This document shows positions 1 to 40,238 of a stretch of 40,238 bases of DNA, piece by piece. The position numbers were made by a program, and so were the translations under genes. The notes below the pieces were generated by a model, which had not been told where the DNA came from, did not search any database, and saw only the letters and a list, made by a program, of their open reading frames with translations. The first letter of the stretch is position 1. Each line of letters opens with the position of its first letter. This DNA comes from Minisyncoccia bacterium (GTDB lineage: Bacteria > Patescibacteriota > Minisyncoccia > Phycocordibacterales > DATDWN01), in NCBI GenBank assembly GCA_965661755.1, contig CBFIEZ010000001.1, positions 1 to 40,238 on the forward strand. The letters run 5' to 3'.

Positions 1-77
1 TCAACATTCTTAATTTGTGTATTAGTTGCCACTCCAAGCTGTGTAGCTACATCTTGTGCATATGTTGTTGGGTTATT
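1..77. repeat. Terminal direct repeat, left copy, identical to 40162-40238. Most likely the assembly overlap of a circular or terminally redundant 40,161-bp genome.
   Basis: The first 77 nt and last 77 nt of the window are identical. A reading frame continues across the junction without a stop. Confidence 0.95.
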
Positions 78-2051
78 TCCATCTCCCTTCGGAGCATAAA
101 CAGCAAAATACTGTGATAATGTCATATTTGGGTTATAGTTTGTTCCTGCAACTGTCTGATTCCCATATACTTGGTTCACAAGAGCATTCCATCAATCCTG
201 TGGAGTTGCATAGATTGTAAATCCACTCTCTGATATACCATTACCAACATCTCCTGCTCTAAGGTTACCAGGGTTATTGTTGTTTAGACCAGCATCTTTA
301 GTGCTATTAGTTCTAAAGTATGGATTATTGAGATTTGAAAAATCATAGTTCTTTGTAACTCCTGCGTTAAGCACTGGTCCTCATGGGAATGATATAGATG
401 ATGTTGAAGAACCTTTCCATGGGTCAACTGTCTTATTTGCAAGATCAATAAAGCCATAGATATTTGCTCATGTGTCAGGATCTTGTCCGATAACACCCCA
501 AGTAGTCTTGTCATCTACCTTTTTGCTAAGAGCTTGCCACTGTGGCTTCTCTCTTACTCACTTCATAAAGTTTTCCTCAATTGCATCTTGTACACTCATT
601 CCTCATTTTACTGCTGACTGTACTTTTGCTATGATCTGGCTTGATGATTGCTGGAAAGGCACTCACATTGCTGTCAGTGTTTTCATTTGCTCTGTAATAG
701 AGTTGTTTATTGCTCTATTTACTTCTACAGGATCAGTAGAGTTGAGACTTGGATTATTAAAGTCATACTCTAGTTGCATTTTCTGTTTCTGACCTTCTGG
801 AGTCTGATTATAGATATTATAAGCCTGTCAGATTGCTGATAGATACATACTTTTATTCTGCAAAGCATTCTGCTCATCAGTTTTCTGCATCTTGAGAGCA
901 TCAGTATATGCAGTGAAGTTTTCTTTAGCATTTCAAAGCTGTAAACTATAGTCTTCTTGTGCAAAAGTGGCATCTCTATATGCTTTTTGAAGTGCTGGTT
1001 GGAGTTCCTTTTGTCTCTTTGTTGCCTCAGCAATGATGAGACTTTCGGTTGCTCCTGTCCCCTCTTTTTCTTTTCTTACATCAGCCTCTATATTTGAGTA
1101 TGTGTCTTGGATTGTAGTATATGCTTGTTTTGTTGCCAAATAATTGTCCTGAGCTGTTTTAATTTCAGGAGTATTTAGCATTTCATTTCTCTTTGCTAAG
1201 AGATCATCTGCAGATGTGATTGTAGATGTTGGTGCAGTAGTGAATCATGCTGCAGTCAGCATATCTTGGACATCCTTGAGTGGAGAGTTTTTTGGTGTTT
1301 CTCCTGAAACTACATTTACTGTATCAAGTTTGAGCTGATCGTCTTTTGCTTTTATATAATCATTATAGAGGTTTGGATTATACGTCTTTATTGTATTCAT
1401 TTGGTTCTGACTCAGCTGTCCTCATCTTACAGCATCAAGAACCTGGCTACCATTTGTAAACTTATTTACAACGGCGCTCTTACTATTTACACCACTATAG
1501 ATGTCTTGCCACTTTTGTGTTCAAGCAGCTTTCCCATATATATCATTGATAGTGTGTTGCCAATTAGGATCGCTCCAGTTTGGAGTAGCACCAAATTGAG
1601 CCAAAGTCTCTGTAAGAGCTTTATCTCTAATAGTATCATCTACATTTATACCACTATTTGCAATGTTTTGAAGTTGTGCCTTTACACTATCAGCTATCTG
1701 TTTGTTTCTTGTCTCCTGATAGCCAGGATTCTGTATGCTAAGAGCATTTGCATCTTGTCAAAACTTTACATCCACTGGTTTGCTTGGATCTGTAGGAGTA
1801 ACTACCTTATCAGAGGGCTTTGTTGCATCACTTGGTGGTGTAACATTCTGTTGACCTCATGCCATAACCTTATTGGCATCTATCCCAGTGTCTACAGGTG
1901 CTACAGGATCAACAGGAGCAGTCGGAGAACCTCCTGGTGTAGGAGATACTGGTGCTGGAGGTGTTGCTCCGCCTACTGGTGGCGTAACTGTCTGATCGAC
2001 ATTTGTCACAGTACCATTTGCATTTCTCTGTGCTACATTCTTTCTTAACAT
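1..2051 (-). CDS. Large virion protein, N-terminal part. The full protein is 963 aa; the ORF crosses the circular junction and ends at 39321.
   Basis: ATG at 2051. I checked every codon from there down to base 1 and on from 40161 to TAG 39321-39323 and found no in-frame TAA or TAG. There are 16 in-frame TGA. The product is Q/N/T-rich with a P/T/V-rich N-terminus and the motif NNNNPGNLRAGD..GFTIYATPQDG. It sits in the late structural arm. Confidence 0.6.
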
Positions 2052-2076
2052 ATGAGGTTTTTGTTTTAGTTAAATA

Positions 2077-8909: not shown

Positions 8910-8940
8910 GTATATTTGTATCAAAAAAAGATATACTACC

Positions 8941-9004: not shown

Positions 9005-10549
9005 CTATAAGAGGTGTGAGAAATCCATTTGTGGTGCTTGGGCACTATCACTCTGGTCTCTATCTTTATCCCAGAATGTATAAGCTAATGCGTCTGCTAT
9101 GTCTGGAGATTTTCAAAACATCTTTTTCATATCCTCCTTGCTCATTATTTGTATCTTGCCTGCTAAGGTTCTCTTGTAGCGGATCATAGTAAGATCCTCA
9201 CGCCATAGCTTAGCATCTCCTACTAGTTGCCCACCTTTCCTAAGCCATTCAGCAAGTCTCCAGAAACATTCAGCACGTCTATTAAGGAATCTTTCCTCAT
9301 CCCATGCTTTGTCTCCCCAGTTCACACCATTCACATTTATTCTAGCTTGTGCAAGTTTGACTGCTACATTTGCACCAACTCCAAAGTTATCCACATATAC
9401 ATTATTGTGTGGGATGTTATAATGGACTATTGCTGTTCCTGTCTTCTCTGCTATAGAAAGCTCTGTACTTACTTTCTCACTAAACACTTGCATAGCACAG
9501 AAATTATCTCTTAGCACTCATTTGGTTTCATCAGATCATTCTCCTGCTGGATCAACTCCTAACTTCTTAAATCAAATGAACATCTGTTTAGGATCCGGCT
9601 CCATTGCTCTATAGTGGAGATCCTGTTCTAGTAAGAGTGGCACATATCATTTATCATCAACTCCATCTGATTTAGGAAACTCTCCAAGTACCATATATCT
9701 AAACTCATCACTATCCTCTCCATATTTCTCTTTAGCACGTTCTGCAAGATCCTTCACTACTGGGCTATCCAATCCATTGAACTGTAAGCATAACCAGTTC
9801 TTCCTATCACTATGGTGGCTATCATAGAAATATCCAATTAGTCTTGTGGGATTAGAAATCATAACCATAAGTGTGCTTCCACTAGTCATAGCTCCTTCTG
9901 CCTTTGTATAGATTATATCATCAACTCCAGAGGCTTCATCCACAAGTATACACACATCATCAGCATGTAGACCTGCAAGTGCTTCTGGATTGTCTTTCTT
10001 AGCTGTTTTTGCTCTAGCCCACCAATAATCCGGAGAGTCTTTCATACGTATATAATCGCTACTTCTCTCATACTGATCCTTGATGCTCTCAGGCATCTTA
10101 TCAAGCCATACTGCTATTTCAGTCCATAGGACATCTTCCATCTGTTCCTTGGTTGGTGCAGTACATCCAATTCTACATTTCTTGTGTGTGAACAAAAACC
10201 ACAAGAGAATCCAACTCATACATGTAGACTTTCCAATCCCATGTCAGCTTGCTACTGTGATCCTATTTGCTCACTTCTCTATAGAGATAAGGATAAGCCG
10301 CTGTTGCCATGTGATATGCTTTCCTTTCTCAAACTCTCCAAACATATCAACAGTAATCTCTTTGACTCTTTCTTTATAATCAAAAAGAGAGAGACTTAAG
10401 ATCTCACTAATGAATCATATGTATTCATTTTTGATAGGTTGTGGTCTAAGTCCCCATACTAGCTCTATGAAGTATATGGGAGACTGTTGTAGTCTTAGAT
10501 AGGTGGCTACTTCTTGTTCAAGTCTTTTGTTTTCGTCTTGGTTATCCAT
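9005..10549 (-). CDS. terL: Terminase large subunit (514 aa)
   Basis: ATG 10549 to TAG 9005-9007, with 8 in-frame TGA. Walker A VAS[TGA]HGIGKST, Walker B-like ILVDEASG, and nuclease-domain motif LGVDPAGE[TGA]SDET. Confidence 0.85.
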
Positions 10550-10550
10550 A

Positions 10551-10925
10551 CTATGTCCCTTTGTAAAAGAGTTGTTCCAAAGCCTCTGATCTCTTGATCT
10601 TTCTAAGCTGGAACTTGTTTATATAGTTGGGAGATAAAGATTTGTTTCTATTTCGGACAGTTATGAGCTGATTTTTGTCTCAGAATATCCATACATTCTT
10701 TGTCATATAATGTTGCATGCATCCATGTAATACTTCTAGTGATACCTTGGGATTCCATTGTACACTCTTAGGGACATCCCCATATGCAGTAACCACATAG
10801 AGGTTCTTATCATTCCTAAAGGCAAACTGTATATTTTCTCTGATCCAAGGGGCTACCTCATCATAAGTCTTAATGGGTAGCCTTTCCAATATTCTTTGGA
10901 CCGCATGGTTGCTTATCCTTATCAT
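10551..10925 (-). CDS. Hypothetical protein (124 aa) with an N-terminal ISNHAVQRILER motif resembling DUF4258/RelE-like folds
   Basis: ATG 10925 to TAG 10551-10553, one in-frame TGA. It abuts terL where a small terminase gene usually sits. Confidence 0.4.
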
Positions 10926-11438
10926 TTACCTTTTGATACCATAGAATCTAAAGTCATTTTTATAGTAGCTTATTCCATACTCACTAAACTTTTCCTCCCA
11001 ATCAAACATCTGTACATCTCTAAGTCATACATTGTAGTAGTAGTCTGTTGTGTAAGGGCTATCAGCTGGGCTTGTTCTCTTTGTCCCATGTTCTGCTCTA
11101 CCAGCACCAGCACAAGTAACTAGAAGTAATCCTCCTGGCTTCAATAGCTTTACCATGTTATGAATCGATTGTCTGAAATACTGATCGTGCTCTAACATCT
11201 CTGTAGATACAACCACATCATACCTTCCATAATCTGTCCACTCATGGACTGGAGACACAATATCAACATTAGGTCATTCCCCTATATCCATCCCAGTATA
11301 TTCACTATATGGGAAGTGTTGCTTGTTGTTCCCATTGATGTCCATGCTTCCAACATCCAAGACTCTTAGCCCAGCCAAGAAGAACTCTGGATGCTTCACT
11401 TTCATATCCTCTATGTATTGGATGACATTTTGGTGCAT
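10926..11438 (-). CDS. Class I SAM-dependent methyltransferase (170 aa)
   Basis: ATG 11438 to TAA 10926-10928. Motif I RVLDVGS, post-I GMDIGE[TGA]PNVD, and LKPGGLLLV. Confidence 0.6.
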
Positions 11439-11440
11439 AC

Positions 11441-11656
11441 TTAGGTGGTTGATGGTAAAATATATAAGTCTGGCAAGTTTTCTCTCCTATACTTGCCCAT
11501 AGCCTTTTCAAAGTTATCAATAGCAACATACCACTCATCACTATATTCAGCAAATGAGGAGATCTTATTCTCAAGATCATCCCACTCCTTTATAGCCTCA
11601 TCAGGTACTAGATATTGGTGTGAGCTCTCATCATACTTTATGTGTACCTTTTGCAT
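11441..11656 (-). CDS. Hypothetical protein (71 aa)
   Basis: ATG 11656 to TAA 11441-11443. Tightly packed between the GT2 and methyltransferase genes. Confidence 0.45.
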   Translation of the reverse strand: MQKVHIKYDESSHQYLVPDEAIKEWDDLENKISSFAEYSDEWYVAIDNFEKAMGKYRRENLPDLYILPSTT

Positions 11657-11657
11657 G

Positions 11658-12320
11658 TTATCTCCAGTTGTTCTCATCTAAAATCTTCTCCCAGGTCTTA
11701 GCATCCTGTTCCATCCAGTAGCTTACCTTCTTGTAGTTAGCTTCTTGCTGTTTCTTGTTTATGGTTTTACTATTCACTGTTTGACTCTCATAGTGTCTTA
11801 TACTTCCACCTCGCCCTACATCCTTTTGAGCCTTATGGAAAAGCCAATTATCATTGTAGAAGATCTTGAGTCTATCATCTATTGGGAATAGACTCTTAGA
11901 TCTTCTGAACATGAAGCAAAACCCATCAATCCCCACATCTCCATTGTTCATGTTGAGCTTCTCCTCATGTCTACGGAAGAAGTATGGGCAAGCTATTGTG
12001 TAGATGTCTGCTAGAGCCTTAAGAAAGCTAATTGTCTTAGGGTTCTGGAACTTGATGTCATTGTTGATAACCATGATATACTCTCCATGACTTTCAGCTA
12101 CTCCTCTATTCCAAGAGTAAGTCACACCTCTATTCTTGTCATTCTTAAAGTATCTAAGATTATCTATGTTCTTTTCTGCTATCCATTCCTCTGTCCCATC
12201 AGTGGATCAGTCATCAACAACTACAATCTCATAAGGCTCATCCATAAAGAGCTTAAGATTGTCTATGATTTGTTTAGTTCGGTATAGTTCGTTGTAAACT
12301 GGTATCACTACACTTATCAT
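11658..12320 (-). CDS. Family-2 glycosyltransferase (220 aa)
   Basis: The N-terminus MISVVIPVYNE...EIVVVDD[TGA]STDGT is the classic GT2 signature. The TGA at 12207-12209 sits on the invariant Gly of DDGS. Confidence 0.8.
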
Positions 12321-13084
12321 ACATTGATATTAGGGCTAAAGTGTGTCTTCATCTGCAATACTTCTTGCTTGCCATAATGTGCAACCTCAGCCTTAAGATT
12401 AGCATATACTTTGTATCATAGATCCTTGCATCTCTCAAAGAAACATAGATCTTCTGATATACATCTTTGCACCTTCTTAATGTTCCCATTCTCTACTTGG
12501 TATTGTGTCTCCCATCCTTCATGTTGATCTTGATGGAGATATTGCTCAGGCTTTCATGTGATGAGGTTGTTGACCCAATATTGGATCTGAAACTCAAAGC
12601 ATTGCCCTTGGTGTGTAAGGTACATCCTATCCACAACATCTCTACTTATGAGGACACATCATGTCCCACAGTTCTCTACCTCAATGATAGGCTCTTTATA
12701 GGTGCTTATATCTGTGATATGAGACTTAAGTCACTCATCATTAAAGCTAAAGATATTAGTAAGCTGATCCTTTGCCTCCTGGTGTCTAAGTGGAACTACT
12801 CAAGTCACAATGTCTTTGTCTGATTCTAAGAGGAGCTTTAGAGTATCAAACTGTGCAATCTGGTCATCATCGAAAAACCATATGTAGTCACAATTCTCAA
12901 TCCTAGATCTCTCTAGCAAGAGATTCCTTGCATACTGTACAGGCTGGCGTTCTACTATCGATATATTGTCAAAGACTAGCTCATATCACTCAGGGATCTC
13001 CTGATGCATGATGCTAAAGAGAACCCTTGGCTTTATACTTCCTGAACCAGAAGGAATCGCTACCATTACCTTTTTCTTTCTCAT
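12314..13084 (-). CDS. GT2-like glycosyltransferase (256 aa)
   Basis: VMVAIPSGSG, FFDDD (DxD), NCGT[TGA]CVLISRDV and EDLCFFERCKDL[TGA]YKV. There are 6 in-frame TGA, checked codon by codon. The start is ambiguous: 13084, 13144 or 13201. Confidence 0.65.
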
Positions 13085-13221
13085 TGTGCCATTTGCAATA
13101 AGCTGTAAATCTATCGATCTCATATTGTCTATAGTGGAGATCATTATTGTATAGTGCTTGGTAGAGATCTTGGATCTGCTTAATGAGTCAATCCATATCA
13201 ATCTTCTTAGTTCATAGGATT

Positions 13222-13806
13222 CTATACTCTTTCCACTTCAATCACTTTTCCTCAAAGGTTCTCACTATCTCCAATGATATTAGATGGGGATATTTCTTTA
13301 TCTTCTTCATGTGCTTCCGCATCACTTCCGGGAGTGCCGTGTTCAATCGCTTTTCTTCTTTCTGCTTCATCTGCAATGTGTGATAAACTAAATACTTTTA
13401 CATTGATGTTCTTAGTTTCCTCTGATATATGCTTGAGATTCCAGTCACTAAACTTCCTCTCTATAATCCATGCATATCTTTGCCATCCTTTTTCATCCCA
13501 TTGCATCTTTCTAAAGAGCTTTTTCTTCTGTATGAATATGGCTGTTGCATAAAGAGTGAGAAACTTCTGCAACCTTGGCTCAAGTTCCTCATATTTCTTA
13601 GTATTGACTTCTACCTTATATGCTCTGAATGTGTCATAGCTTACAGTGAGCATTGGATCTATCTTTTTGACTCTTTTATTTACTTCAAAGTAGAGATCCT
13701 CATCAGTCATTATTATGGCGTTTATGTCATCATTAACGACCTTTTCAAACTCCTGTAATCGATACACACTTAGTTTCTTTGGTCTTCCATTCTCTGTAAC
13801 TCACAT
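13222..13806 (-). CDS. terS: Putative terminase small subunit (194 aa)
   Basis: N-terminal M[TGA]VTENGRPKK followed by an HTH-like segment and ..WQRYAWIIERKFSDWN, a pattern typical of small terminases. About 2.7 kb separates it from terL. Confidence 0.45.
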
Positions 13807-13807
13807 A

Positions 13808-14467
13808 TTATCTCTTGCAGTGTAAAAGATGTGTCCTATCTAATGGATCATTGTCTATTAGCTTAACATCGAATCATTGTTTCTCAAAGCCTCACATTAG
13901 ATTGTGCACACTTCATACTCATGTCATAAACTCATGTGTCTCAAACATCATCTCATTTACGGTATCTGGGACTATCATGTCTCTAAACATCTCTATCTCT
14001 CATCCTTCACAATCGCATTTTATCTTAGTAATGCCATATGTCTCAATAAGGTGCTTGATTCATACTGCTGGCACTTCTACCTTCTCATCTCCTTCAAAAG
14101 GCATAGTAGTATTGTGTCATCCATTGATTCATATAGTGAGAATTGTAACCCCATCTTCTTTTGCTCATGCAACTGGTAGTGCCATTACATTCTCAATACC
14201 ATTTACTTTAAGATGCTGGAGTAGAAGATCATAGTTGTGCTTATATGGCTCTAATGTAATAACTTGTTTTACTTTGTCAGCTACATAGATGTCGTAACTT
14301 CCAATATGTCATCATATGTTGAGTACCTTATCCTCTTTGTTGTAATCCATCTCATAGCATCGATCTATGAGGACTTCTTTTAGGACATATTGCTCATCTG
14401 TTCATGGTGTAAAGTAGAATATCTTTCAGTCTACCACTGCTTTTCTTCTTCCTTCTTCTATGCCCAT
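13808..14467 (-). CDS. FkbM-family SAM-dependent methyltransferase (219 aa)
   Basis: VLNI[TGA][TGA]HIGSY, a Gly-rich SAM motif with tandem TGA at 14309-14314, plus ITKIKCDCEG[TGA]E. There are 13 in-frame TGA and no in-frame TAA/TAG. Confidence 0.65.
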
Positions 14468-17989: not shown

Positions 17990-18076
17990 TACTAAAACAA
18001 AAGGTTATCGTCCAATTTGGAGTTTAGATTGTATTTACCATTTACATTTCTAGAGTTTTGCAGTCACATAAATTAT

Positions 18077-18457
18077 ATGCCGTACTCATTTTTAGCTGGT
18101 AACAAGCCAACTATGATAAATGAGGTACATAATTTATGCTATTATTTAGAAATTGTTAGATATGCCAGTCCAGAGACGATAAGAAAATATAAATTATATC
18201 TTACTATGTTTTTTAGGTATATAAAGAAGCGTGGTATATATGATGTGAGTGATATAAAATTAAGCCTCATAGAAGACTATAAAAAATATCTATATAAGTA
18301 TTATAACGATAGCACCACGGTAAAAGCCATATCCAACCTAAGATGATACTTCAAATATAGAGCAATAATAGATGCACCATTGATCCATTATGAAAGAATT
18401 GAAAACATAAAAAGTCCTTATTGATACTACCATAAAACACCCATATTTTATAGCTAA
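18077..18457 (+). pseudogene. Tyrosine-recombinase (integrase) relic: only the N-terminal SAM-like core-binding domain is present
   Basis: ..YASPETIRKYKLYLTMFFRYIKKRGIYDVSDIKLSLIEDYKKYL......TVKAISNLR[TGA]YFKY matches the XerC/D-type N-terminal domain. The ORF stops at TAA 18455-18457, before any catalytic domain. An alternative start is at 18113. Confidence 0.55.
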
Positions 18458-18578
18458 ATGTCAATTATAGGAGAGATTTTCTTTTATTTGTGACATAATT
18501 TATTCAGTTGTATATCTCTTAGATCGTGCTTAACGACTCATTTTTCATATTCTCAATAAAAAATCATGTAATTTAGAT

Positions 18579-18607
18579 TTGACGTGTGACTATGTTTCGG
18601 TTAAGAT
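18579..18607 (+). promoter_or_regulatory. Sigma-70-like promoter
   Basis: TTGACG, a 17-nt spacer, then TAAGAT. The spacer contains a TGTGAC motif. Confidence 0.45.
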
Positions 18608-18613
18608 AGTATC

Positions 18614-18827
18614 AATATCAAGTCACGAGAAAATATATAGTTTACCGGTAGAATACAAAAACCCTCTAACCGGAGAGGATATAGCTTTGCACCTTAACTC
18701 CCATTAACCATGGGTCTTATATCTTGTGCACACCTGAGCGACGGACTGTCCCAATGTGCACTAGAGGTGCTAATCTAGATCCCATAACTTATATGACATC
18801 GTACTTGGTAGAGTGCGGTGTTTTTTT
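18614..18827 (+). ncRNA. Candidate structured leader or small RNA 1 (about 210 nt)
   Basis: It lies between the promoter at 18579 and an intrinsic terminator. Helices: CCTCT/AGAGG, GCACCT/AGGTGC (long range), CCCAT/ATGGG, GTGCAC/GTGCAC. No ORF. Confidence 0.4.
18797..18827 (+). terminator. Rho-independent terminator
   Basis: CATCGTACT-TGGTAG-AGTGCGGTG forms a 9-bp stem (2 G-U pairs) and is followed by T7. Confidence 0.6.
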
Positions 18828-18834
18828 ATGTGAC

Positions 18835-18959
18835 AATAAACAATGCCAAGCACAAATCTAATCCGTCCCAGTAAGACCGCTCAAAGAAAGGACAAATAAG
18901 AGGATTAGGTCGACGGAAGATAAGCGGTCTTAGGTCTAATACTCTTATTTGTTTTTTTT
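18835..18959 (+). ncRNA. Candidate structured RNA 2 (about 125 nt)
   Basis: Two crossing helix pairs, CCGTC/GACGG and AAGACCGCT/AGCGGTCTT, give a pseudoknot topology. They lie partly inside the loop of a long terminator hairpin. Confidence 0.35.
18892..18959 (+). terminator. Rho-independent terminator with a long hairpin
   Basis: Perfect 11-bp stem ACAAATAAGAG/CTCTTATTTGT, extended by ATTAG/CTAAT, followed by T8. Confidence 0.6.
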
Positions 18960-19031
18960 AAGAGTGTCTAGTCATGTCTAGGAGTTTTCAACACTCCCCA
19001 CTACCCTTTACCTTTATACCCATGTTAATAG

Positions 19032-19181
19032 ATGCAACACGATGAGCAAATGGAATTAGATCCAGAACAAGAGCTAGAGGCTCAACAACAAAGTAACTAT
19101 GAAGATGAGACAGAAGAAGAGTTCAACAGGAACAATGCAAGGTTGGACATCCCTACTCTTAACGAGAGGCTATCATGCTAA
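19032..19181 (+). CDS. Small acidic protein (49 aa), first ORF of the early arm
   Basis: ATG 19032 to TAA 19179-19181. E/Q/D-rich. Confidence 0.35.
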   Translation: MQHDEQMELDPEQELEAQQQSNYEDETEEEFNRNNARLDIPTLNERLSC

Positions 19182-19292
19182 GCAGGACACTCCTCTCCCT
19201 CTATCTAGCTAAGCTATCATATGGTGCTCTCGATCATGGGCACACACTGATACTCTACAGCTACATCCTAATGATGACAATTATGCTTTATT

Positions 19293-19595
19293 ATGCTTAC
19301 AAACACTCCCATGCAAATCAGTGAAAAAGACAAAAAAAGGTACATCACAATTGTAAAGTTATTCTCCAAAGGAGATAAGAAGAACTACATAGGCTATGAT
19401 AAGAAGAACAACGCCTATGACATACAAACATTTTGGTATGTACCAAACTCCCCTCGTTGCAGACATGGTGGAAGATGACCTACAATATGTCATCCATATC
19501 AGATTATCACACAAGGATGATTTGTATACAGCCGAAATGCAAAGAAGGATGTTTACTCTCCTACAACCCAACACTTCATACTCGATATAAAGTAA
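19293..19595 (+). CDS. Hypothetical ORF (100 aa under table 25); only its first half looks protein-like
   Basis: Frame-0 ORF open through 2 TGA to TAA 19593-19595. It overlaps the frame-1 ORF 19396..19590. Confidence 0.25.
19396..19590 (+). CDS. Hypothetical ORF (64 aa), an alternative frame to 19293..19595
   Basis: ORF-track ORF. Its composition is more natural than that of the overlapping frame over this interval. Confidence 0.3.
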   Translation: MIRRTTPMTYKHFGMYQTPLVADMVEDDLQYVIHIRLSHKDDLYTAEMQRRMFTLLQPNTSYSI

Positions 19596-23445: not shown

Positions 23446-23530
23446 GATTGGTATAGCTTATTGGGGTAGAGCGTGCAGTGCACAATCAAACAGGAAAAGC
23501 AAGAGGTGGGTTCGAGTCCTACTACTAATC
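23446..23530 (+). ncRNA. tRNA-like element B, which lacks an anticodon arm; it sits in a hairpin-flanked cassette spanning 23421-23560
   Basis: Acceptor stem ATTGGTA/TACTAAT (extendable to 8 bp), D arm GCT-TATTGGGGTAG-AGC, and T arm GTGGG-TTCGAGT-CCTAC are all canonical. The 33 nt between the D and T arms form no 5-bp stem with a 7-nt loop at any register. The flanks are homologous to cassette A. Confidence 0.45.
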
Positions 23531-25576: not shown

Positions 25577-26182
25577 ATGAAACGTGTAATGTTTAACGCA
25601 CATAAACTATTCACAGGTATTGCAAAGCTCTTTGAGCCTAAAAAGAAGAAGTATGTAAAAGGTGGAAAAAAGTATATCCCAAGACCCAAGAGATCAAAGT
25701 ATGAAAAGTATTGGGTAAATCAAAAGATCCCCTTCTCTGAAATCCCAAAAGTAAAGGAATTAAGAAAGACTCATACTCTCCAGGAAATTGCTGACATATA
25801 CCAAGTTAGTAGAGAGAGAATAAGACAAATATGCTGAGGTAGAGTCCTAAATGTTAAGAAAGAAACAAGAGAAAAATTGGAAGAAATAAGGAAGTATGCT
25901 AAAACTCACACACTTAAAGAGATCTATGATAAGTACCATGTAACAGCACAAACCCTCAAGCATCACAATATGGAGTATATTGTTACGAAGAAGATCTATG
26001 AGATATTTGATGGGTATGACCTTATAGGTCTCCTAGAAACATACACATACAAAGAAGTAGCCCAGATGTTCAATGTGTCTATCTGAAATGTCCAATATGC
26101 AAGAGATGTAATACTTGGATTAGGGAAGAGATCAGGCACTTTATCATCTAAAAAGGCTAAATGAAACTCAAACTTATCTTAG
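25577..26182 (+). CDS. DNA-binding protein with three sigma-70 region-4-like HTH repeats (201 aa)
   Basis: HTLQEIADIYQVSRERIRQI, HTLKEIYDKYHVTAQTLKHH and YTYKEVAQMFNVSI[TGA]NVQYAR. 3 in-frame TGA. The 3' end overlaps the next gene by 22 nt. Confidence 0.55.
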
Positions 26183-27447
26183 ACACGCCTAATTACTGTG
26201 CAACAGTAGTAAAGGTCAACAATCTTATTCCACTTGCGTGATGTGATAATGTAGTATGATTCTCTATATTTGGCTTCCAGGCAATTGTAAGTAAAGATAC
26301 TAAGATAGGAGATTATGGGATTATATTTACTGCAGAAACCCAGTTATCTGAGGACTTCTGTAAGAAAAATAATCTCTATAGACATGCCGGATTAAATGAT
26401 GACCCAACCCAAAAAGGTTATGTAGAAGACAATAGGAGGGTGAAAGCTATGAAGTTCAGAGGACACAGATCCTCTGCTCTCTTTATGCCTCTCCAGTCTC
26501 TACTCTATATTCCCTCAACAGAATGAGAGGAGTTTGAGGAGTGAGTGTCTTTCAATCATCTTAATGGTGTAGAGGTTTGCAAAAAATATGTTGTTCATAC
26601 TAGAGAGGGAAGACAAAATCATATAGCTGGGAAGACAAAGAAGTTTGAAAGAATAGACTGCAAAACCTTCCCTGAGCATCTTGATTCTGACAACTACTTT
26701 AGGAATGCCCATATGTACCAACCAGGAGATCAGATCATTGTAACACAAAAACTCCATGGGACATCAGGTAGATTTGGAAACGTGAAAGTAAGGAGAAAGC
26801 TATGACTCTTTGAAAAGATCCTCAAGAAGCTATGAGTGAAAATTAGTGAGATAGAATATGACTACATAGCAGGATCTAGGAGAGTTATTAAGGATGCAAA
26901 ATCAGAAAGAGAGTTCACTCACTACTACTCCTCTGATGTGTGGAATGAGATGCTTGAAAAGATCAAGACCCTCATCCCTAAAGACTACATCATCTATGGA
27001 GAGATTGTAGGTTGGACAGGAGAGAAACCAATCCAGAAGGGGTATACATATAAGATCCCTAAGTGAGAGAATGAGCTCTACATCTATAGGATCTCTATTG
27101 TGAATGATGATGGAGTTGCAACCGATCTTTCATGGAGTGCTATCTTGCATTTCTGTGAGATGACAGGTCTAAAGGCTGTTCCTACCTTTGAGATAATGAC
27201 ACATGAAAAGTTTGAGGCATCACAATTCCTAGATAAGATATTTAGTGAGATGTACCCTCAAGCACTTCCTTTGGATCCAGAGTCTCCATGTGATGAGTGA
27301 GTATGTCTAAGAAGGGAATCTTTATTGCCATATATCACTAAAGCAAAGTCTCCGAACTTCTTTGAGTTTGAGTCTAAGCAACTTGATACATGAGAAGAAG
27401 ATATAGAAAGTTTAGAATCTAATACACCATCACTTGATGATAAATAA
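26161..27447 (+). CDS. RNA ligase, Rnl2/RNA_ligase-family nucleotidyltransferase (428 aa)
   Basis: Motif I TQKLHGTSGRF (K-x-H-G), YGEIVG, motif IV CDE[TGA]VCLRRE, motif V TKAKSPNF. 9 in-frame TGA, checked codon by codon. Confidence 0.7.
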
Positions 27448-28012
27448 TTTTGATTCTTTTGGGTTTGAGTTTGTAGAGTGAGAGTTTTATTTCTTCCAGA
27501 TTCTTGATAGAAGTAAGTCTGGAGGAAATAACAAAACCCGCTGTATCAAGTCATATTATATCGACAACCAGGAGTTCTTTGACAAGAAGAAACCTGAGAT
27601 GATAGAGCTTGCTGATACAACAAAGAGCAGAGTCTATGTCCATCCGGCCAGGAGAAGGAAAGACAAAATAGCTCTTGAACTCCTCTCCTATGTTGCTGAC
27701 TGCATAAATTATGGGGAGCTAGATAGGGTCTGGAGATGATATGAAACTGTTTGTTGAAGAAACCATGGAGTCAAAAAGATGTGGATTGTGGATGTAGATA
27801 GCAATGAAACAGTAGAGGTAAGAAATGCTATTGCTCATATTAAAGACATCCAACCATTCAGAGTGCCTGCAAAGATAGTCAACACAGTCAATTGAGTGCA
27901 TCTCATATATGAGGGATGATTTGATAGGACAAAGTACAAGCTGAAATGGGATATACAGACCAATAATCCAACAGTTATTTATTCCTCAGAAACTCCAAAA
28001 TGAGAGCTATAA
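27437..28012 (+). CDS. Hypothetical protein (191 aa) wedged between the RNA ligase and Pnkp genes
   Basis: It overlaps the ligase gene by 11 nt and the Pnkp gene by 13 nt. 6 in-frame TGA, checked. Motifs WIVDVD and N[TGA]VHLIY. Function unknown. Confidence 0.5.
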
Positions 28013-28872
28013 TACTCAAAGGAATCCCCTCTTGTGGGAAAAGTACAAAGGCTATAGAGCTAGAAAAAGAGTGATATGTCAGAATCAATAGAGACACAAT
28101 TAGAGAAGAAAATCCTGATATGTCTGAGGATGATGTAAGGCACTACAAAAATAGGATGATAACAGATGCTCATGCTGCAGGCTTGAATATTGTAATTGAT
28201 GACACAAACATCAATCCAAATACCCTAGAAAAAACAAAGAAGTTCCTAGAGGCTCTTGCATATGAAACAGAGGTCTTTGATTGCTTTGATGCTGTAATAA
28301 AGGAATGGATAGATGCTCCAGTAGCTCTAGGACAATGTATCACTTGGAACACTAAGAGAGAAAAGTATGTGCCGGAGAGTGTGATATATGACATGTACCT
28401 CCAGGATGATAGGCTCTTAGATAAGAAAGATGTTGTGATTATAGATCTAGATGGGACTCTCTACAATATCGATCATAGATTAGAGTTTGTGACTAATGGA
28501 AAAAGAGATTGGGCACAATTTGAAAGCCAAGAAGAAATAGCAAAGGATCAGGTCTATGATGCTGTAAAGAAAGTAATTACATCACTCTATAACAAATATA
28601 GCATCATCCTTCTTAGTGGTCGTAAAAATAAGAATTGCAAGCAAACTGTAGCCAATCTTGAAAGAGATGGGATCAAATATGATGCCCTCCTAATGAGACA
28701 AACATGGGATAGCAAACCTGACTACCAAGTGAAGCAAGGATTTGTAGATCTCATCAAGAAAAACCACAACATCCTCTTTGCCTTTGATGATAGAAAGCAA
28801 GTGATAGATATGTGGAAGAAAAATGGAGTGTATGTGTTCAACTGTTGTCAAAAAGAAAGTAACGATTTTTAA
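28000..28872 (+). CDS. Polynucleotide 5'-kinase/3'-phosphatase, T4 Pnk-like (290 aa)
   Basis: N-terminal P-loop KGIPSCGKST and C-terminal HAD phosphatase motif IIDLDGTLYN...SGR...FDDR. One in-frame TGA. Confidence 0.8.
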
Positions 28873-33513: not shown

Positions 33514-35214
33514 CTATGCTGTTGCTACACAACGCCACTTACTAGCCGCAGCATTCCAGATAAAGCCAACTACTAGCATAGTGGAAATTACAGTTGTTGA
33601 AGGGAGTGTAACAGTTGATGACTCAAAACTAGATCCCCATGTAATTGCTCTTGCTGTCCCATTGTCTGTAATCCTTACTATCAACATATCTCAATCAGTA
33701 GGAGTTCCAGACAGATTAGTTGTCATTGATGTAATCGCCTGTGCAAGTCCTGTGATTGATGCAACATCCATATTATCTGTATTGATAGTTGGTGTTGCTG
33801 ATTGTGTGACTGTAGAAACTCTTTTTGTCACTCTCTTGTTTGTGAGTGTGTCTGTTGTTGCTTTTCCAACAAGTGTATCTGTAGCATCAGGTAATGTTAT
33901 TGTCCTATCATTAGTATGATTTGATGCAATAGTCATAGTCTTTGCTGTAGTTGCACCAGAAAGAAGAAAGGCAAGTGCCTTTGTTAAGTCTGCTGCAGCC
34001 CCTACCTTTGTTGTAGAATCTGAGAGGGTTTTATTTGTAAGTGTTTGAGCTGTTGTTTTATCAACTGTTGTTGCAGTATCGATAGAGAAGACATTTCCTG
34101 AAAGCCCAATACCTGTTCCAGGTGTGTATGTACCTGCACCAGCAATCTGGGCAAAAACGACACTTGTTGAGCCAAGTGTGATACTATTGTTAGTACAAGT
34201 CCATTGCGTATCTGCATTTGTAGTACCTTCTTTTATGAGTACAGTTGCTGAAACAAGTTCAGCTCCAGTATCAGAATCAGTTGCTCTAGTTGGTGCTCCA
34301 GAAGCAGCTACAACATAGATACCATTTTCAGCACCAGATGACTGGTTTTTGATGAGAATACGATCTCCCGTAACAAGAGACACTCCATCTACTGTCTGTC
34401 CATTTGCAAAAGCCGATGCAAGAGTCCCATTAGCTGTAGTTGCAACTCTTACTGCTGTTTTCCATGTGATACCTGTAATGTAATTATCAACATAATTCTT
34501 TGTCGCAGCATCTTGAGCAGATGTAGGATCTGTAACATTAGTGATCTTATGTGAGTTCATAGAAACATCTGCACTAGGTGCTGCCATTTGATCTAATCTA
34601 GAAGTTCTAACTTGTGTGTCAAAGTCAGATATAGTTGATGCTGTTTGAGTCCCTGTATGATTAGCTCTTGCCTTTAAGTTTGCATCTGTATCATTTGCAG
34701 TTGCTCCAGAAGCTATACCTGCAAGTTTAGTTTTCTCTGTAGCTGTATAGACTTTATTTGTAGTACCATTCACATGATTATCTGTGTTGAATGCATCCGC
34801 AGCCTTATTTGTTGGGTCATAAGTAGAAGCAAGCATATCTCCACTTCCTAGACCATTATCTCCAATATATTTTACCCAAAGACCGGCAAAATCTCCTGAT
34901 GCAGGAGGAGTGTTTGTGTTAGTCACAAGTTGTGCTGTATACTTAAGAGAACCACTTGGTGTATATGAAAATCATGCTCCTCATGTACTAGAGGCATATG
35001 CTATCCAAAGATATTGAGACTGTCCATCATCTCCAGGATCTCCCTGGTCTCCTTGATCTCATTGGTCTCCCTTATCTCCTTTAAGACCTTTTAGATCAGA
35101 CCATAGAGCATAGTAGATCTTATCTCCATCCTCACTATTGGCAATTTGTACCTTATCATTAGCCGCAGGCGTAACCTTCCTGGAAAAGTCATCAGGAAAT
35201 ATCTTAACTGTCAT
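33514..35214 (-). CDS. Tail fibre with an N-terminal collagen-like repeat (566 aa)
   Basis: GLKGDKGDQ[TGA]DQGDQGDPGDDG is eight consecutive Gly-X-Y triplets. The rest is a T/S/A/N/G-rich shaft. ATG 35214 to TAG 33514-33516, checked. Confidence 0.65.
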
Positions 35215-35411: not shown

Positions 35412-35548
35412 AGAATTATAGTAGCTTGACTGCTTTGATTGACAACGTATGGGAGAAAAATGGGAGAAAATGGAGAGAAAAAAGATTGACTTGATTTCTA
35501 CGAGAAAACGGCTTTACTATGCGTAGATTTATCCTTTTCTACAAAGCC

Positions 35549-36340
35549 ATGAAAAAGACTATTATTGCTATATTGGCATCCTTCCTTCTAGTGGGATCTA
35601 CCTTTGCATATACCCCAGCCATGGAGGCAAAAATATCTGCAGTTCAACTAAATGATGCAGAGCAAACTATGTATGATAAGCTAGTTGCTATAATTTGACC
35701 TAACATTGATAAGTATGGAGAAACCTATAGAACAAAGGTTCTTAGAATACTTAATAGTGTTGAGAAGAAGTCTAGTGGAGTGAGAATGAAAGCCTTAGTA
35801 AGGCAAATTTCTGACTACACAGAAAATTATGCTAATGATTCAGCATTAGATGATTTATCTGATTTGGCAAATGCCATAAAGGACAATTCACAGTCAAATA
35901 ATGAGACTTGAGGGTCTACACAGCAAGTAACTACTCCACCAGTTGACTATGATAAGATGTCATGGGATGCTATAAATAGTGACCCAATTGTCACAAGCTA
36001 CTTCTTCTCAAAGAGACCATCAAAGCTACTAAAGATAGGTATTGTAGAAGATGATAGAATACTCACAAAGCTAGATAGTACCTACCCAGACTTATGGTCT
36101 TGGACATATAAGATCTCATCATCATGTGACCTTACATCAGTTGTGTGAAAATCAGTATTAGTAGGAACATATGCAGAAAATCAACCTTATTCATACTACC
36201 TATATGCACCAGATGGAAAGGGGGCATTTATAAAATGTGAACTCACTAGTGAAAAGGCTCTCCAAAATATAGATTGGATGAGTAGACCACAAGATGTACA
36301 ATGGCTAAGAGCAAATGGGTATGATAAAAGTATTAGATAA
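35549..36340 (+). CDS. Secreted protein with a signal peptide (263 aa); an opposite-strand moron inside the late arm
   Basis: MKKTIIAILASFLLVGSTFA signal-like N-terminus. 3 in-frame TGA, checked. It has its own upstream region and a terminator. Confidence 0.55.
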
Positions 36341-36344
36341 TAAG

Positions 36345-36373
36345 AAAAAGAGTAGGGATTATCCTACTCTTTT
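36345..36373. terminator. Bidirectional rho-independent terminator
   Basis: AAAAA-AGAGTAGG-GATTAT-CCTACTCT-TTT: a perfect 8-bp stem flanked by an A-run and a T-run. Confidence 0.6.
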
Positions 36374-36376
36374 CTA

Positions 36377-36463
36377 TTAACACATTTTACCTCCTTTCTT
36401 CGCTGGGGCTTTTTTTGGTGCAACCTTTACAGCAACTTTCTTAGTGACTTTTTTAACAGCCAT
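36377..36463 (-). CDS. Very small lysine-rich peptide (28 aa)
   Basis: MAVKKVTKKVAVKVAPKKAPAKKGGKMC. ATG 36463 to TAA 36377-36379. Confidence 0.25.
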   Translation of the reverse strand: MAVKKVTKKVAVKVAPKKAPAKKGGKMC

Positions 36464-36489: not shown

Positions 36490-39309
36490 CTATTTAGAGA
36501 TTTTAATATCTTTAGGATTGAATACAACAACCTCATCTCATTTGCCACCTGTATTCTTTCGCACACCGATAAATCACTTATCTTCTACATGTGAGGTAAA
36601 CTGTCTTGTTTGACTTAATATCGGTCTTACTAATCCATTACTCTCTTGTTTTAATGCTGATTCTGACATGTCTAGATAATCAGCAAGTGCCCCTACTGAA
36701 TCAAACTTACTTAGATCCAATAGCTTAGATGTATCAATCTTAACTTCTTTAATATACTTAGCATTTCATCAACGTATTACATTCTTAGCAGCCTCTTTAT
36801 CTGGAGTAAAGTAGAATCAATGCCCCCAAAGACCATCATCAGTTTGGCTTCCTATCTTACTAGTATCAAAGCTTTCAAAGTTTTCATTTGTTCCATGATA
36901 GAATGTTTTTACTTCCATAGAATTATCACTATTAGAATGCAAAGTATCAGAAATCCTGTCCACCCTAGACTTAGGAGGAGTATCAATCACAGGACTCACA
37001 GGGCTATCTTTCGCATTTTTCTTGTAAAGACTCTTAGCTAAATTAGCTCTGAATCCTTCATTTTCAAACAATCCTTTCTTAACAAGAAGAGATCAAAGAG
37101 CCGCAGGTCATCCACTCAATATAGCTCCAATAGCAGCTATTTGTGTGTCTCCCAAACCAATAAGATTATGGTTAGCTATTCTACCTTCCGCTTGTAGAGC
37201 AGAGTTTTGAAGGACATGGGCTGCCCTTATATTATCATTCATGGTCTTAATATCAACGCCTCTTTCAGTACCAGATTTTTCAATATAATTCTGCACTACA
37301 TTTCTTTGTGACACACTTGCCTCATTATCAACAGTATTTTCAGGCTTACCATTTATATCCCACTTTATATTATCAGGGTTATAATGGTCGTAAAGCTCCT
37401 TAATAGCTTCCATTTGTGTGAATGATATATGGTCTTGGTTCTGGAGCTTCTCTAATGTATTACGGATCTTAAGTTGTGCAGGATCTACAGTCTTGAGATC
37501 TTCCGGTGTCATTTCTGCAAATGTCTTAACATCAGGATTGAGAGAATACTTAACCATTGCCTCATCAATCTTATCCTTAATAACTCTAGCCATTCTCCTC
37601 ACTTGTGGGATGACTGGAGTAGATCCCCAATCTTTCATAGAAGCCAGCTTATCATCAATGTTCTTCACTTTGAACTCTTGGGCATTATCAGCAGTATCTC
37701 CAAGTGTTTTACCTACTAGATCATTTTCCAATGCAAACTTCTCTGGTGTCATACCATTGATATTTGCCATATCTCTCTTTTGAGCTCTAGTGGTCTTCCA
37801 CTGGCTTCCTATAATCTTTTCAGCAAGAGCACTATTCTTGACTGATTTAAGAGCATTCCATGCTGTAGCTACTGGTTCTGTTGCTATCTTAGCTCCCTTG
37901 ACTGCCATATTTGCTACCTTACTTCCTTCTGTAGCCTTATCTAATGCAGAAAATCCTTTACCTATAGCAGTATCTACTCCTAGGTTTGAGACTCCAAGTG
38001 CTTTAGATCCAAACTCTCCTATCTTAGCTGCTGTTTCAGTTGCTCCAGCTACCTTTGCCACTTTACTAGTAAGACTTGCTCCTCCTCCCACAACTGTGAG
38101 AATATCAGATGCAACACCTACTGGATCCATCTCCATACTATGTTGGAAGGCATTAAGACTTCCATATCTATTCATAATATACTCTTTCCCTGCTGGTGTT
38201 GTCACAAGTTGTGCAAGACCTCTCAATGTATCATATGGATTAGTGATCCCTCTTGCAGTTGCTGTAGCTAACTTAGCTGCAGATCCAGGAGCATTCACTA
38301 ACTCATTTGGAAGACTCTTAAAATCTCCTAGAGCAATATCTCCAAAGTTCTTTTGTTTCTCTCTAATATATGTATTTACATCTCCATAGAGCCATTTATC
38401 AAATGAGCTACCATTGAATTGGTCTGTGAGTTTTTGTTTTTCTTCTGGAGAAAGAGACGCAACCCTTTCATCCACAGCTTTGTCTCTACCTGATGAGACA
38501 TCAAATGTAGGGATAAGTTGTGCAAGACTATCAAGACCTTGTGCTCACTTTCCTACTATATTAGTCCAATCTAATGTTTTCATCAAAGTAGTTTCATCAG
38601 CACCTACTTGTGCAGGAGTTCTTCTAACAGAAGTTCCTACTCCATCTGCTGGAGCTAACTCTTTATTCTGGTCATTTAATCATTCTATGGTATATCCGGC
38701 CTCCATTGCTTTTTGGAGTAGCACCGGAGCAATCTCAGCAGGACTTTTGCCTTGCTGTTTAGCTGCTAACTCCACGCTTTGCTTAAAAAAATCCTTTGAA
38801 ATGTACTTGTCTCCTTGCCCATCTTGTGTAGGAGTCGCGTTGTCTGCTCCAGGTGCACTTGGTACTCATCCTATAGGCATTTGGTCTAATGTCTTGCTAT
38901 CTACACCATATTGTCCTTGGGTAGGTCATCCATTATTAACACCAGGAACTACACCTATCTTTTTATATGCATTTTTGAACTCCTCAAGACCATCTACATG
39001 ATAGTTTTGATCTAAGTGTGATATAAGCTCATCCGGGTGTATGTCCTCAGGCTTGTTTGCTATCATAGATTGGAAATTAGAGAAAGGCACAACAGGTGTC
39101 CCATCAGTTGTGTACTGTTTCACATAATTATCTAACTTTGATACCTTTCCTATGCTATCCACAACAAAATTACCAAATGTTTGGTTCTTTGGGGTGCTTG
39201 CATATTGGTCGCGTGGAGCTGCTCATGCTTGAGGCTGTGGTGCAGGTGTTTGTTGTACCTGCTTCTTCTTATCATTAGAGAACCACGTCCTTGGATCGTA
39301 TCGTGTCAT
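36490..39309 (-). CDS. Large virion/ejection-type protein (939 aa) with a C-terminal PARP-like (H-Y-E) ADP-ribosyltransferase domain
   Basis: ATG 39309 to TAG 36490-36492. It fuses 38926..39162, 37108..38475 and 36817..37071 across 12 in-frame TGA, checked. It has an A/G-rich central region. The C-terminus carries FYHGT...GH[TGA]FYFT...GDEVVVFNP. Confidence 0.6.
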
Positions 39310-39320
39310 ATTTTTTTCTA

Positions 39321-40238
39321 CTAGTTAAAGTTAAATTGTGAAAGCCATTGTGCTGGATCTATATTTCCATTTGGTGCTTGTCCTCATGTTACCTTTGCTC
39401 TAAGTGAAGTAACCTTATCATCAATCAACTTATAATATCCTTGCATTCCTGCTGTATTATATGTTGCAGAGTCTACTCTCACTGCATTTCCAAGTGATGA
39501 CTTAACAGTATCTAGCATAGCAAGCATAATAACATCTCTTACATCAGCTGTCTGTGATATGTTTGGTATTGTTTGGATATAGTTCTTTATGTCTTGATCT
39601 GTGAGCACTCCAACCTCTCCGAATATACCTCTTGCCACCTTTGGAGTGATAGCCTGGAGATCAGCTTTGATTGCTTGAGCTTTTGTGTCCCATGGATTAT
39701 TGTTTCTAATCAATGCATTGAGTGGTGCTAAGTCTCCTCCTCCAGCATTAGTAATATCATCATATAAGTGATCGAGTTTGTCTGTCACAATTCCTATATC
39801 CTTGTATTGCTTGCTTGGGCTTTCAGTAAGGGCTTTCTGACCTCTTGAGAGTCTCATAAGCTCATAGATGTCTGAATTAGGATCAGATTGTATGTCATTT
39901 TTTGATTGCTGGAAAGCATAATACTGTTGTACTCTTGCTTTGTTTTTATCTGTTTGTGGATTATAGTTCGATGAGTTGAACTGTGCAATATATCCATCAG
40001 TGATAGCCTTAGAATCAGCTCCTCATTGATCTGCTGCAGTGATACTTACTATATTTGGTGTGTCTCCTTCCTTCTTGAGGTTAGAGTTTCACGCTCCAAA
40101 TAGAACTGAGTACATACCCTTACTTTCATGTGATGATATTGCTTTAGCAAGTGCCAATGTATCAACATTCTTAATTTGTGTATTAGTTGCCACTCCAAGC
40201 TGTGTAGCTACATCTTGTGCATATGTTGTTGGGTTATT
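39321..40238 (-). CDS. C-terminal part of the 963-aa junction-spanning virion protein (continuation of 1..2051)
   Basis: Same reading frame through 40161 to base 1; the genome length is divisible by 3. Stop at TAG 39321-39323. Confidence 0.6.
40162..40238. repeat. Terminal direct repeat, right copy, identical to 1-77
   Basis: Exact 77-nt identity with the start of the window. Confidence 0.95.

Follow-up and report, generated by a model that had tools for sequence, protein, structure and literature searches.

A PARP-like ADP-ribosyltransferase domain at the C terminus of a putative ejection protein in a podophage-like genome that reads TGA as glycine

The window analysed here (the whole stretch of DNA, 40,238 nucleotides (nt), contig CBFIEZ010000001.1) is a complete podophage-like genome. 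Positions 1-77 and 40162-40238 are identical over 77 nt, and the sequence was therefore taken to be a closed (circular or terminally redundant) phage genome of 40,161 bp. Among its late genes, on the minus strand, lies a single gene for a 939-amino-acid (aa) protein that ends in an ADP-ribosyltransferase (ART) domain of the ART-PolyVal family. This domain, the protein that carries it, and the genetic code in which both are written are described below, and the coordinates of the features are collected in Table 1.

Family assignment of the C-terminal domain was based on Pfam, in which the curated gathering score of ART-PolyVal (PF18760) is 31.2 bits. The full protein matched this family at 44.9 bits (E 2.6e-11) and the domain alone at 50.0 bits (E = 7e-13), and even with TGA translated as tryptophan the score (39.5 bits) exceeded the cut-off. 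Membership of residues 799-936 in ART-PolyVal is not a chance match. A second Pfam match of the domain, to DUF3990 of the same clan, was weak and sub-threshold. A profile of the domain recovered 37 database proteins, 36 of them annotated as PF18760 and/or DUF3990 (PF13151) and the other one being the window's own 84-aa fragment (P0003); a word-index search with the domain alone likewise returned that fragment only. Comparison with phage genomes using tblastn placed the domain in a 1489-aa polyvalent protein of the jumbo phage Tunturi_5 (gp273, E 5e-8), in the 566-aa protein NVP1182O_16 of the Vibrio podophage 1.182.O (E 4e-5), whose gene belongs to a post-nozzle cluster that follows those for adaptor and head closure, and in Ackermannviridae proteins of 149 aa that bear the annotation structural protein or ADP-ribose transferase (E ~0.01). 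The virion RNA polymerase (vRNAP) of Roseovarius Plymouth podovirus 1 (CBX87992.1), the prototype of Iyer et al., could be aligned directly to the locus (tblastn E 2e-9), with the motifs LYHGT, GLFFT, GYDGAIV, and GEIMVV. Single-sequence searches did not reach the PARPs: phmmer of the domain against the PDB sequences gave noise only (angiotensin-converting enzyme, E 0.12), and Pfam PARP (PF00644) did not match the single sequence at E up to 1. Two other assignments were considered and rejected, namely a Tpt1/KptA or DarT type, which the Pfam, profile, and fold searches did not support, and the Alt/VIP2 class, which is defined by Arg, Ser-Thr-Ser, and Glu-x-Glu motifs; those found in the domain are His, Tyr, and Glu.

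The connection to the PARP and diphtheria-toxin fold was made with a family profile, which included the window sequence and was searched against all PDB sequences, and with a structural model of a proxy. The profile matched tankyrase-1/2 at E 8e-4, followed by PARP4, PARP16, PARP12, PARP15, PARP3, and PARP2, and its match to exotoxin A was weak (E 0.57, not significant). In the profile alignment, YHGS falls on LFHGS of tankyrase and GaGfYF on GAGIYF, and a second local alignment, which is not significant alone, places kEvvVF on AEYVIY, the strand with the PARP catalytic Glu. The model was that of P0031, a 147-aa protein 34% identical across the domain, and not of the domain itself. With a predicted local distance difference test (pLDDT) score of 91.6, it found as its best PDB matches in Foldseek the catalytic domains of PARP2, tankyrase, and PARP4 (E 3.5e-5 to 4e-4, template modelling (TM) score ~0.5), and it also matched AcrIF11 (6kyf, E 1e-4) and chain B of 9k3a, a 1071-aa component of the cyanopodophage A4 pre-ejectosome (E 1.8e-4, TM 0.51). 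In the model, YHG belongs to the strand at 28-32 and GFYF to that at 50-56, and the penultimate strand, at 126-134, contains EVVVF. Among predicted viral structures (BFVD), the matches of P0031 were mostly PolyVal ARTs within phage proteins of 600-1500 aa, MuF fusions, and N4-like vRNAPs. The preliminary description of this locus had proposed a C-terminal ART domain of the PARP/diphtheria-toxin class. Both proposals held, since the Pfam match stands above the gathering score with H805, Y833, and E926 in conserved columns, the family profile and the proxy model agree on an ART fold, and the H and Y motifs align to tankyrase. As a separate observation, the A4 chain 9k3a_B may contain an unrecognised ART-like domain within a solved ejectosome; the A4 paper leaves an alpha+beta domain in gp28 without a name and never mentions ADP-ribosylation (PMC12002296).

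In the family alignment, H805, G831, Y833, and G912 occupy near-invariant columns, and in the E926 column 19 of the 24 family sequences have Glu and one has Asp. The ART-PolyVal sequences that were gathered have two conserved acidic sites, the near-invariant Asp of GYDG and a Glu (rarely Asp) in the next strand, and the Roseovarius vRNAP prototype has both (GYDG and GEIMVV). The ART-PolyVal triad given by Iyer et al. is not H-Y-E but H-Y-D, its three residues lying in strands 1, 2, and 5, respectively (PMC5512222). From the local, sub-threshold alignment to PARPs, taken with strand order and fold logic, Glu926 is the putative equivalent of the PARP catalytic residue. It is preceded by Asp925, and AcrIF11 likewise uses an adjacent Asp-Glu pair in its catalytic loop (D115/E116; PMC12421852). 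The domain is probably catalytically active.

The gene is continuous only when TGA is read as a sense codon. Under translation table 11 it is split into two minus-strand open reading frames (ORFs), one of 455 aa (37108-38475) and one of 84 aa (36817-37071), and every break in the frame is a TGA codon; with TGA as sense, a single open frame runs from 39324 to the TAG at 36492-36490. The 939 codons include 12 in-frame TGA codons, at residues 29, 128, 148, 210, 255, 734, 739, 831, 847, 848, 912, and 924. The same holds window-wide, where the summed length of ORFs with 100 codons or more is 24.4 kb under table 11 but 58.7 kb once TGA is sense, and where a simple gene set with TGA as sense covers 95% of the window and has TGA within most called genes on both strands. 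Reading TGA as Trp (code 4) was rejected because the score was lower in all five Pfam domains tested (Gly versus Trp: DNA_methylase, 179.3 and 162.2 bits; Methyltransf_21, 27.3 and 18.0; RNA_ligase, 46.4 and 41.3; Laminin_G_3, 81.9 and 77.3; ART-PolyVal, 50.0 and 39.5) and because TGA falls on invariant glycines. Known glycines encoded by TGA are those of ENVKxL in C5 methylases, of the terminase Walker A motif ASxHGIGKS, and of NIxxHIG in FkbM methyltransferases. Two near-invariant glycines of the ART domain, G831 (36819-36817) and G912 (36576-36574), are also TGA codons, and the Gly reading is therefore confirmed within the domain itself. In total, 210 of the 845 Gly codons in the window are TGA, and only TAA and TAG serve as stops. 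With this code, the preliminary description was correct in giving a length of 939 aa and in its quoted peptides KTFYHGTNENFESFD, DGLWGH-x-FYFTPDKEAAKNV, and GDEVVVFNPKDIKI, all present on the minus strand, the glycine bracketed there being TGA 36819-36817.

Gracilibacteria and Absconditabacteria use code 25, and phages with the same code have already been described (PMC10746230). Because TGA is read as glycine, the host is probably a member of one of these two groups, consistent with the earlier proposal of a candidate phyla radiation (CPR) bacterium as host. Searches of the window with Rfam and ARAGORN did not find a UGA-reading tRNA, only tRNA-Ser(GCT) and a poor tRNA-like element, and the UGA-reading tRNA must consequently come from the host. 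The tRNA-like element (23447-23530, plus strand) scored 36 bits in Rfam and was called by ARAGORN only at relaxed thresholds, as an odd 86-nt tRNA-Cys(GCA) that is not a UGA reader. No relative turned up when species-representative genomes were scanned.

Table 1. Coordinates of the late gene block, of the 939-aa protein gene, and of its parts (window positions; TGA read as Gly).
Feature	Coordinates	Strand	Remarks
Terminase large subunit	9005-10549	minus	Late block, 1st
Portal-size protein	7023-8969	minus	Late block, 2nd
Major capsid protein	5265-6104	minus	Late block, 3rd
SU10-type adaptor	4473-5180	minus	Late block, 4th
Nozzle-size protein, 684 aa	2441-4495	minus	Late block, 5th
125-aa protein		minus	Late block, 6th
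969-aa protein	5' part 1..2069; 3' part 39321..40161	minus	Late block, 7th; crosses the contig junction
939-aa protein, complete coding sequence	36490..39309	minus	Late block, 8th; ATG 39309-39307, TAG 36492-36490
N-terminal region, residues 1-290	38440..39309	minus	Pro/Gly/Gln-rich; no family match; ~53% identity to L001 orthologue
Carrier sub-module A, residues ~310-510 (ATATARGITNPYDT...DPVGVASDILTVVGGG)	37780..38382	minus	Commonest part of the carrier family
Carrier sub-module B, residues from 511 to about 715-745	37165..37779	minus	All-alpha model
Hydrophobic Gly/Ala-rich segment, residues 716-744 (IGLGDTQIAAIGAILSGGPAALGSLLV)	37078..37164	minus	Kyte-Doolittle maximum 1.73
Linker, residues 745-798 (~55 residues)	36916..37077	minus	Lys/Pro/Asp-rich; no domain match
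ART-PolyVal (PF18760) domain, residues 799-936	36502..36915	minus	Pfam, profile, and proxy-fold matches
His805, YHGT motif, strand 1	36895..36897	minus	Near-invariant in family; aligned to tankyrase LFHGS
Tyr833, G-H-G-F-Y-F motif, strand 2	36811..36813	minus	Near-invariant in family; aligned to tankyrase GAGIYF
Ile914 (GFIG)	36568..36570	minus	At the family's near-invariant GYDG Asp; family alignment
Glu926, D-E-V-V-V-F strand, Asp925 before it	36532..36534	minus	Sub-threshold alignment to tankyrase AEYVIY
Terminator-like hairpin, 12-bp stem then T-run	36345..36374	minus	115 nt downstream of the stop of the 939-aa gene
Opposite-strand gene, 304 codons, signal-peptide-like start (MKKTIIAILASFLLVGSTFA)	35426-36340	plus	Between ejection-type and tail fibre genes
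Tail fibre, collagen-type repeat at start (GDKGDQGDQGDQGDPGDDG)	33514-35214	minus	Late block, 9th; after one opposite-strand gene
LamG-domain protein, holin, C39-like peptidase		minus	Late block, 10th-12th

Upstream of the ART domain, the protein is a carrier built of the parts listed in Table 1. Sub-module A is Ala/Gly-rich with a weak hydrophobic peak at residues 397-415, and the model of sub-module B is confident (pLDDT above 90) and without a structural neighbour in the PDB. The hydrophobic segment directly before the effector (residues 716-744) is a candidate membrane-inserting helix, a role suggested by its hydropathy. The preliminary description called the protein A/G-rich, which is only mildly true, given 9.1% Ala and 8.4% Gly overall and 11.4% Ala in the core. 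Because ART-PolyVal is the one recognisable enzymatic domain in the 939 aa, the protein would represent a minimal version of a 'polyvalent' protein. Comparison of the carrier with the PDB sequences using phmmer gave nothing relevant, and the carrier model had no Foldseek match at E <=0.001.

The late virion genes (terminase, portal, major capsid, adaptor, tail fibre, and holin) share one strand block with the 939-aa protein gene, and this synteny is kept in the related phage contigs L001, from SRR24524804, and L002, from GCA_964563595.1. Between the window and L001, structural proteins share 48-70% identity. The stop of the 969-aa gene lies 11 nt before the ATG of the 939-aa gene. The N-terminal 550 aa of this large neighbour are 51% identical to a CHAP-bearing 975-aa protein of L001, the C-terminal half differs, and the large protein that precedes the orthologue of the 939-aa protein bears CHAP in L001 and Peptidase_M23 in L002. 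The C-terminal half of the 969-aa protein also contains GLNNNNPGNLR, with a weak likeness to an endolysin (PDB 7q47, E 0.83, not significant). The arrangement of the block is that of T7 gp11-gp17 and of cyanophage A4, in which the proteins between nozzle and fibre are ejection proteins, one of them with cell-wall hydrolases (PMC12002296). By its position, the 939-aa gene occupies the internal-core (ejection) gene slot of T7 and A4, which follows the adaptor and nozzle genes and precedes that of the tail fibre; its location among tail and ejection genes had been recognised from the start. For the tail fibre protein itself, matches were obtained to numerous PHROG families of fibre, head-decoration, and structural proteins (best E 5e-61). 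The hairpin at 36345..36374 is the probable end of the transcription unit of the 939-aa gene, facing the convergent gene at 35426-36340 (plus strand), and L001 has an opposite-strand gene at the same place. Directly after the stop of the 939-aa gene and before the hairpin lies a mini-ORF (36377-36463, minus strand) of 28 codons for a Lys/Ala-rich basic peptide (MAVKKVTKKVAVKVAPKKAPAKKGGKMC), which is not conserved in L001 or L002.

Relatives of the carrier were sought with the TGA-free 455-aa middle of the protein among 1.84 billion representative proteins (E <=1e-3), and 192 were found. The lengths of the 150 that were listed are 56-1980 aa, mostly 400-1980 aa. Most of the relatives (P0041-P0187) contain 5-9.6% Trp and 0.5-4% Gly, and because Trp is so high and Gly so low they are taken to be code-25 genes stored as code-4 translations. 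In the database, the gene for the 939-aa protein itself is found only in pieces of 455 and 84 aa, and a word-index search for full-length relatives returned two only, P0001 and P0002, from contigs with the same gene order. In the relatives, sub-modules A and B may be combined or stand separately, and the tails behind them reach up to 1450 residues. A local hidden Markov model (HMM) identified ART-PolyVal-like domains, some in tandem, in 12 of 149 carrier relatives, one of these positives (P0002) having been among the sequences from which the HMM was built. Pfam analysis of 45 long relatives gave ART-PolyVal in nine and LPD23, PBECR3, PBECR5, SprT-like, and LPD1 in one each, all of which are signature domains of polyvalent proteins (PMC5512222); the resemblance to such proteins noted in the preliminary description is thereby supported. 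One relative of 931 aa, P0110, is arranged like the 939-aa protein, its Lys/Pro-rich linker leading to a C-terminal ART with 34% identity.

Exchange of the C-terminal part is seen directly when the window is compared with L001, where the 939-aa protein and its upstream neighbour both share about 500 N-terminal residues (51-53% identity) with their counterparts and then diverge fully. The L001 orthologue (10001-13231) ends in a Walker-A (GGSGAGKGT) kinase-like domain; its tail has no Pfam match and only insignificant similarity to adenylate kinase. The L002 orthologue (10001-12589) ends in a degenerate ART-like tail (YFRGQ / GLGTYMT / GTIVVF) without a Pfam match. Related phages thus retain the carrier and exchange the C-terminal cargo, forming a modular family.

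On balance, it appears somewhat more probable than not that the 939-aa protein is a late-expressed internal-virion (ejection) protein of a code-25 podophage-like phage with an injected ART effector. Packaging is inferred from gene order only, and ejection, membrane insertion, catalytic activity, target, and timing are likewise inferred in the following scheme. A ~745-residue N-terminal carrier, all-alpha and Ala/Gly-rich, would end in the hydrophobic segment, and the ~55-residue linker, presumed flexible, would tether the 140-residue ART domain to it. The protein would be made with the capsid and tail proteins and packed into the capsid beside the other core proteins. On infection it would be expelled through the portal and tail with the DNA or just ahead of it, and the carrier would assist in crossing the host envelope. 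Once in the cytoplasm, the C-terminal domain would use host NAD+ to ADP-ribosylate a host component before phage transcription begins, possibly a part of the transcription or translation machinery or a defence protein. In the putative active site, His805 and Tyr833 would hold NAD+, and the catalytic acid would be Glu926 (with Asp925). T4 Alt and polyvalent proteins are precedents for packaged effectors (PMC5512222, PMC9503650), and the polyvalent protein gp47 of phi24B was detected in a podophage virion proteome (bioRxiv 10.64898/2026.04.10.717836).

The nearest known systems each share part of this arrangement. With the ART-PolyVal polyvalent proteins of phages and conjugative elements (Iyer et al. 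2017), the 939-aa protein shares YHG[ST], GxGFYF, an acidic residue in the xVVF strand before the last strand, and its nature as a large protein encoded among virion genes; it differs in having a carrier other than a MuF, vRNAP, or metallopeptidase module, in being barely 'polyvalent', in having Ile for the GYDG Asp, and in being a code-25 gene whose public copies are fragments only. T4 Alt resembles it in the proposed logic of a late-made, particle-borne ART that is delivered with the DNA and acts before transcription (PMC5512222, PMC9503650), whereas Alt belongs to the R-S-E (Alt/VIP2) clade and is a head internal protein of a myovirus, the domain described here is of the H-Y-[E/D] type in a podophage core-type protein, and sequence similarity between the two was not found. 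AcrIF11 (PDB 6KYF) is a small phage ART with a diphtheria-toxin-like fold that was matched by the P0031 model, but it stands alone, with no sign of virion packaging in PMC12421852, its key residues are H-F-H-D, and similarity to the domain was not found at the sequence level. The PARP catalytic domains (tankyrase-1/2, PARP2, PARP4, and PARP16) have the H-Y-E arrangement but exceed 200 residues, compared with 140 here, and include helical and regulatory parts that the domain lacks; nothing indicates poly-ADP-ribosylation by the latter. The podophage core proteins (T7 gp14-16, A4 gp26-29, and phi24B gp47) correspond in place in the gene order, in large size, in mostly alpha-helical character, and in a neighbouring gene whose orthologues carry a peptidoglycan hydrolase (PMC12002296), but sequence or structural similarity of the carrier to a solved ejection protein was not found, and the assignment is positional only.

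Several points weigh against an injected, active effector. The near-invariant GYDG Asp is replaced by Ile914, and if that Asp is the catalytic acid, the copy in this genome could be impaired. That H805, Y833, and E926 line one pocket is a prediction, the modelled fold being that of the 34%-identical proxy. The L002 orthologue has lost the His (now Arg) and the Glu (now Thr), so such ART domains can decay in this lineage. The literature searched contains no experimentally characterised ART-PolyVal enzyme and none with a known target. A processing peptidase domain able to free the effector from the carrier was not found, and comparison of the carrier with solved ejection proteins detected similarity neither in sequence nor in structure.

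The loss of the GYDG Asp leads to the alternative that survives best, namely that the C-terminal domain is a decayed, inactive ART fold retained as a structural or binding module of an ejection protein. The degenerate tail of the L002 orthologue, which falls below a Pfam match, would fit this explanation, as would the Gln found in place of the Glu in the Vibrio phage homologue and the fold-matching chain of the A4 pre-ejectosome, which was described merely as an alpha+beta domain (PMC12002296). Against decay, H805, Y833, E926, and the flanking glycines are all kept, the domain scores 50 bits and is well over the family cut-off, and the Glu column coincides with the PARP catalytic Glu in the sub-threshold part of the profile alignment. 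The Asp is also missing in a few other members, P0033 (GFIGV), P0083 (GFVGR), and P0036. An inactive module is considered unlikely.

The dependence of the packaging argument on gene order alone, and the dissimilarity of the carrier to solved ejection proteins, would also fit an active domain in a protein that is not packaged and that acts late in the producing cell or is freed at lysis, with no injection. T4 ModA and ModB are phage ARTs that act without packaging (PMC5512222). However, the gene is inside the structural operon, 11 nt past a large-protein gene and in the T7/A4 core-gene slot (PMC12002296); the polyvalent-protein domains of the carrier relatives are predicted to be packaged, with one detection in a virion proteome (PMC5512222; bioRxiv 10.64898/2026.04.10.717836); and stand-alone homologues in Ackermannviridae are annotated as structural. 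Action without packaging was rated as quite improbable. More doubtful still is a domain that acts not on protein but on NAD+, as an NADase altering the host pool or pre-empting NAD+-dependent defence, or on nucleic acid, as a DNA or RNA ADP-ribosyltransferase alongside the RNA ligase and PNKP repair genes of the phage. The ART superfamily does include NADases, DarT (DNA), and KptA/Tpt1 (RNA 2'-phosphate) (PMC9503650), the phage does encode RNA ligase and PNKP, and the weak DUF3990 match is to an ART-clan family whose activity is unknown, but the profile and fold searches gave protein-modifying PARPs and AcrIF11 as best matches, not DarT, Tpt1, or NADases, Pfam gave no match to PTS_2-RNA or DarT, and substrate class cannot be read from sequence alone.

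Within the preferred reading of an ejected, active ART, a narrower and rather improbable possibility is that the domain is an AcrIF11-like anti-defence enzyme carried on the ejection machinery, which would disable a host immune protein at DNA entry, before phage expression. Its target might then be, for example, CRISPR-Cas or another surveillance component of Gracilibacteria or Absconditabacteria. If this were true, the cargos of the sister phages (the P-loop kinase-like domain and PBECR nucleases) would be alternative pre-loaded counter-defences, and the family would constitute a 'polymorphic ejectosome effector' system that is particular to phages with code 25.

Earlier publications cover the domain family, the concept of virion-delivered ARTs, and the existence of code-25 phages, and according to a prediction made in 2017, ADP-ribosyltransferases borne by virions are the most frequent protein-modifying enzymes of phage polyvalent proteins. 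New here are the combination of these elements in one protein, a previously unannotated cargo-swapping carrier family among code-25 phages, and the finding that its public translations are garbled or fragmented. The ART-PolyVal theme is extended to phages of code-25 CPR lineages, whose biology is almost unknown, and the protein displays a compact architecture of carrier, hydrophobic segment, linker, and effector. Because cargo is swapped between related phages, the family offers a convenient system for studying how podophages deliver enzymes with their DNA. Domain surveys performed under table 11 or table 4 miss or degrade the effectors of code-25 phages.

Other parts of the genome contain the following features. 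The genes for RNA ligase (26161-27447) and the polynucleotide kinase-phosphatase PNKP (28000-28872) are close together on the plus strand; this pairing serves phages in the repair of tRNAs cut by host anticodon nucleases. Beside the terminase, a block on the minus strand (10926-14467) encodes two glycosyltransferase-2-like proteins and two methyltransferases, one of which is of the FkbM type and has 13 TGA codons in 219. The ORF at 18017-18457 contains only the N-terminal SAM-like domain of a phage integrase, and the integrase catalytic domain was not found downstream of it. Behind it lies a stretch of about 0.9 kb in which every forward frame contains stops, where transcription direction and guanine-cytosine (GC) skew switch, and the interval 18017-19430 as a whole could be an integrase remnant together with a regulatory or origin region.

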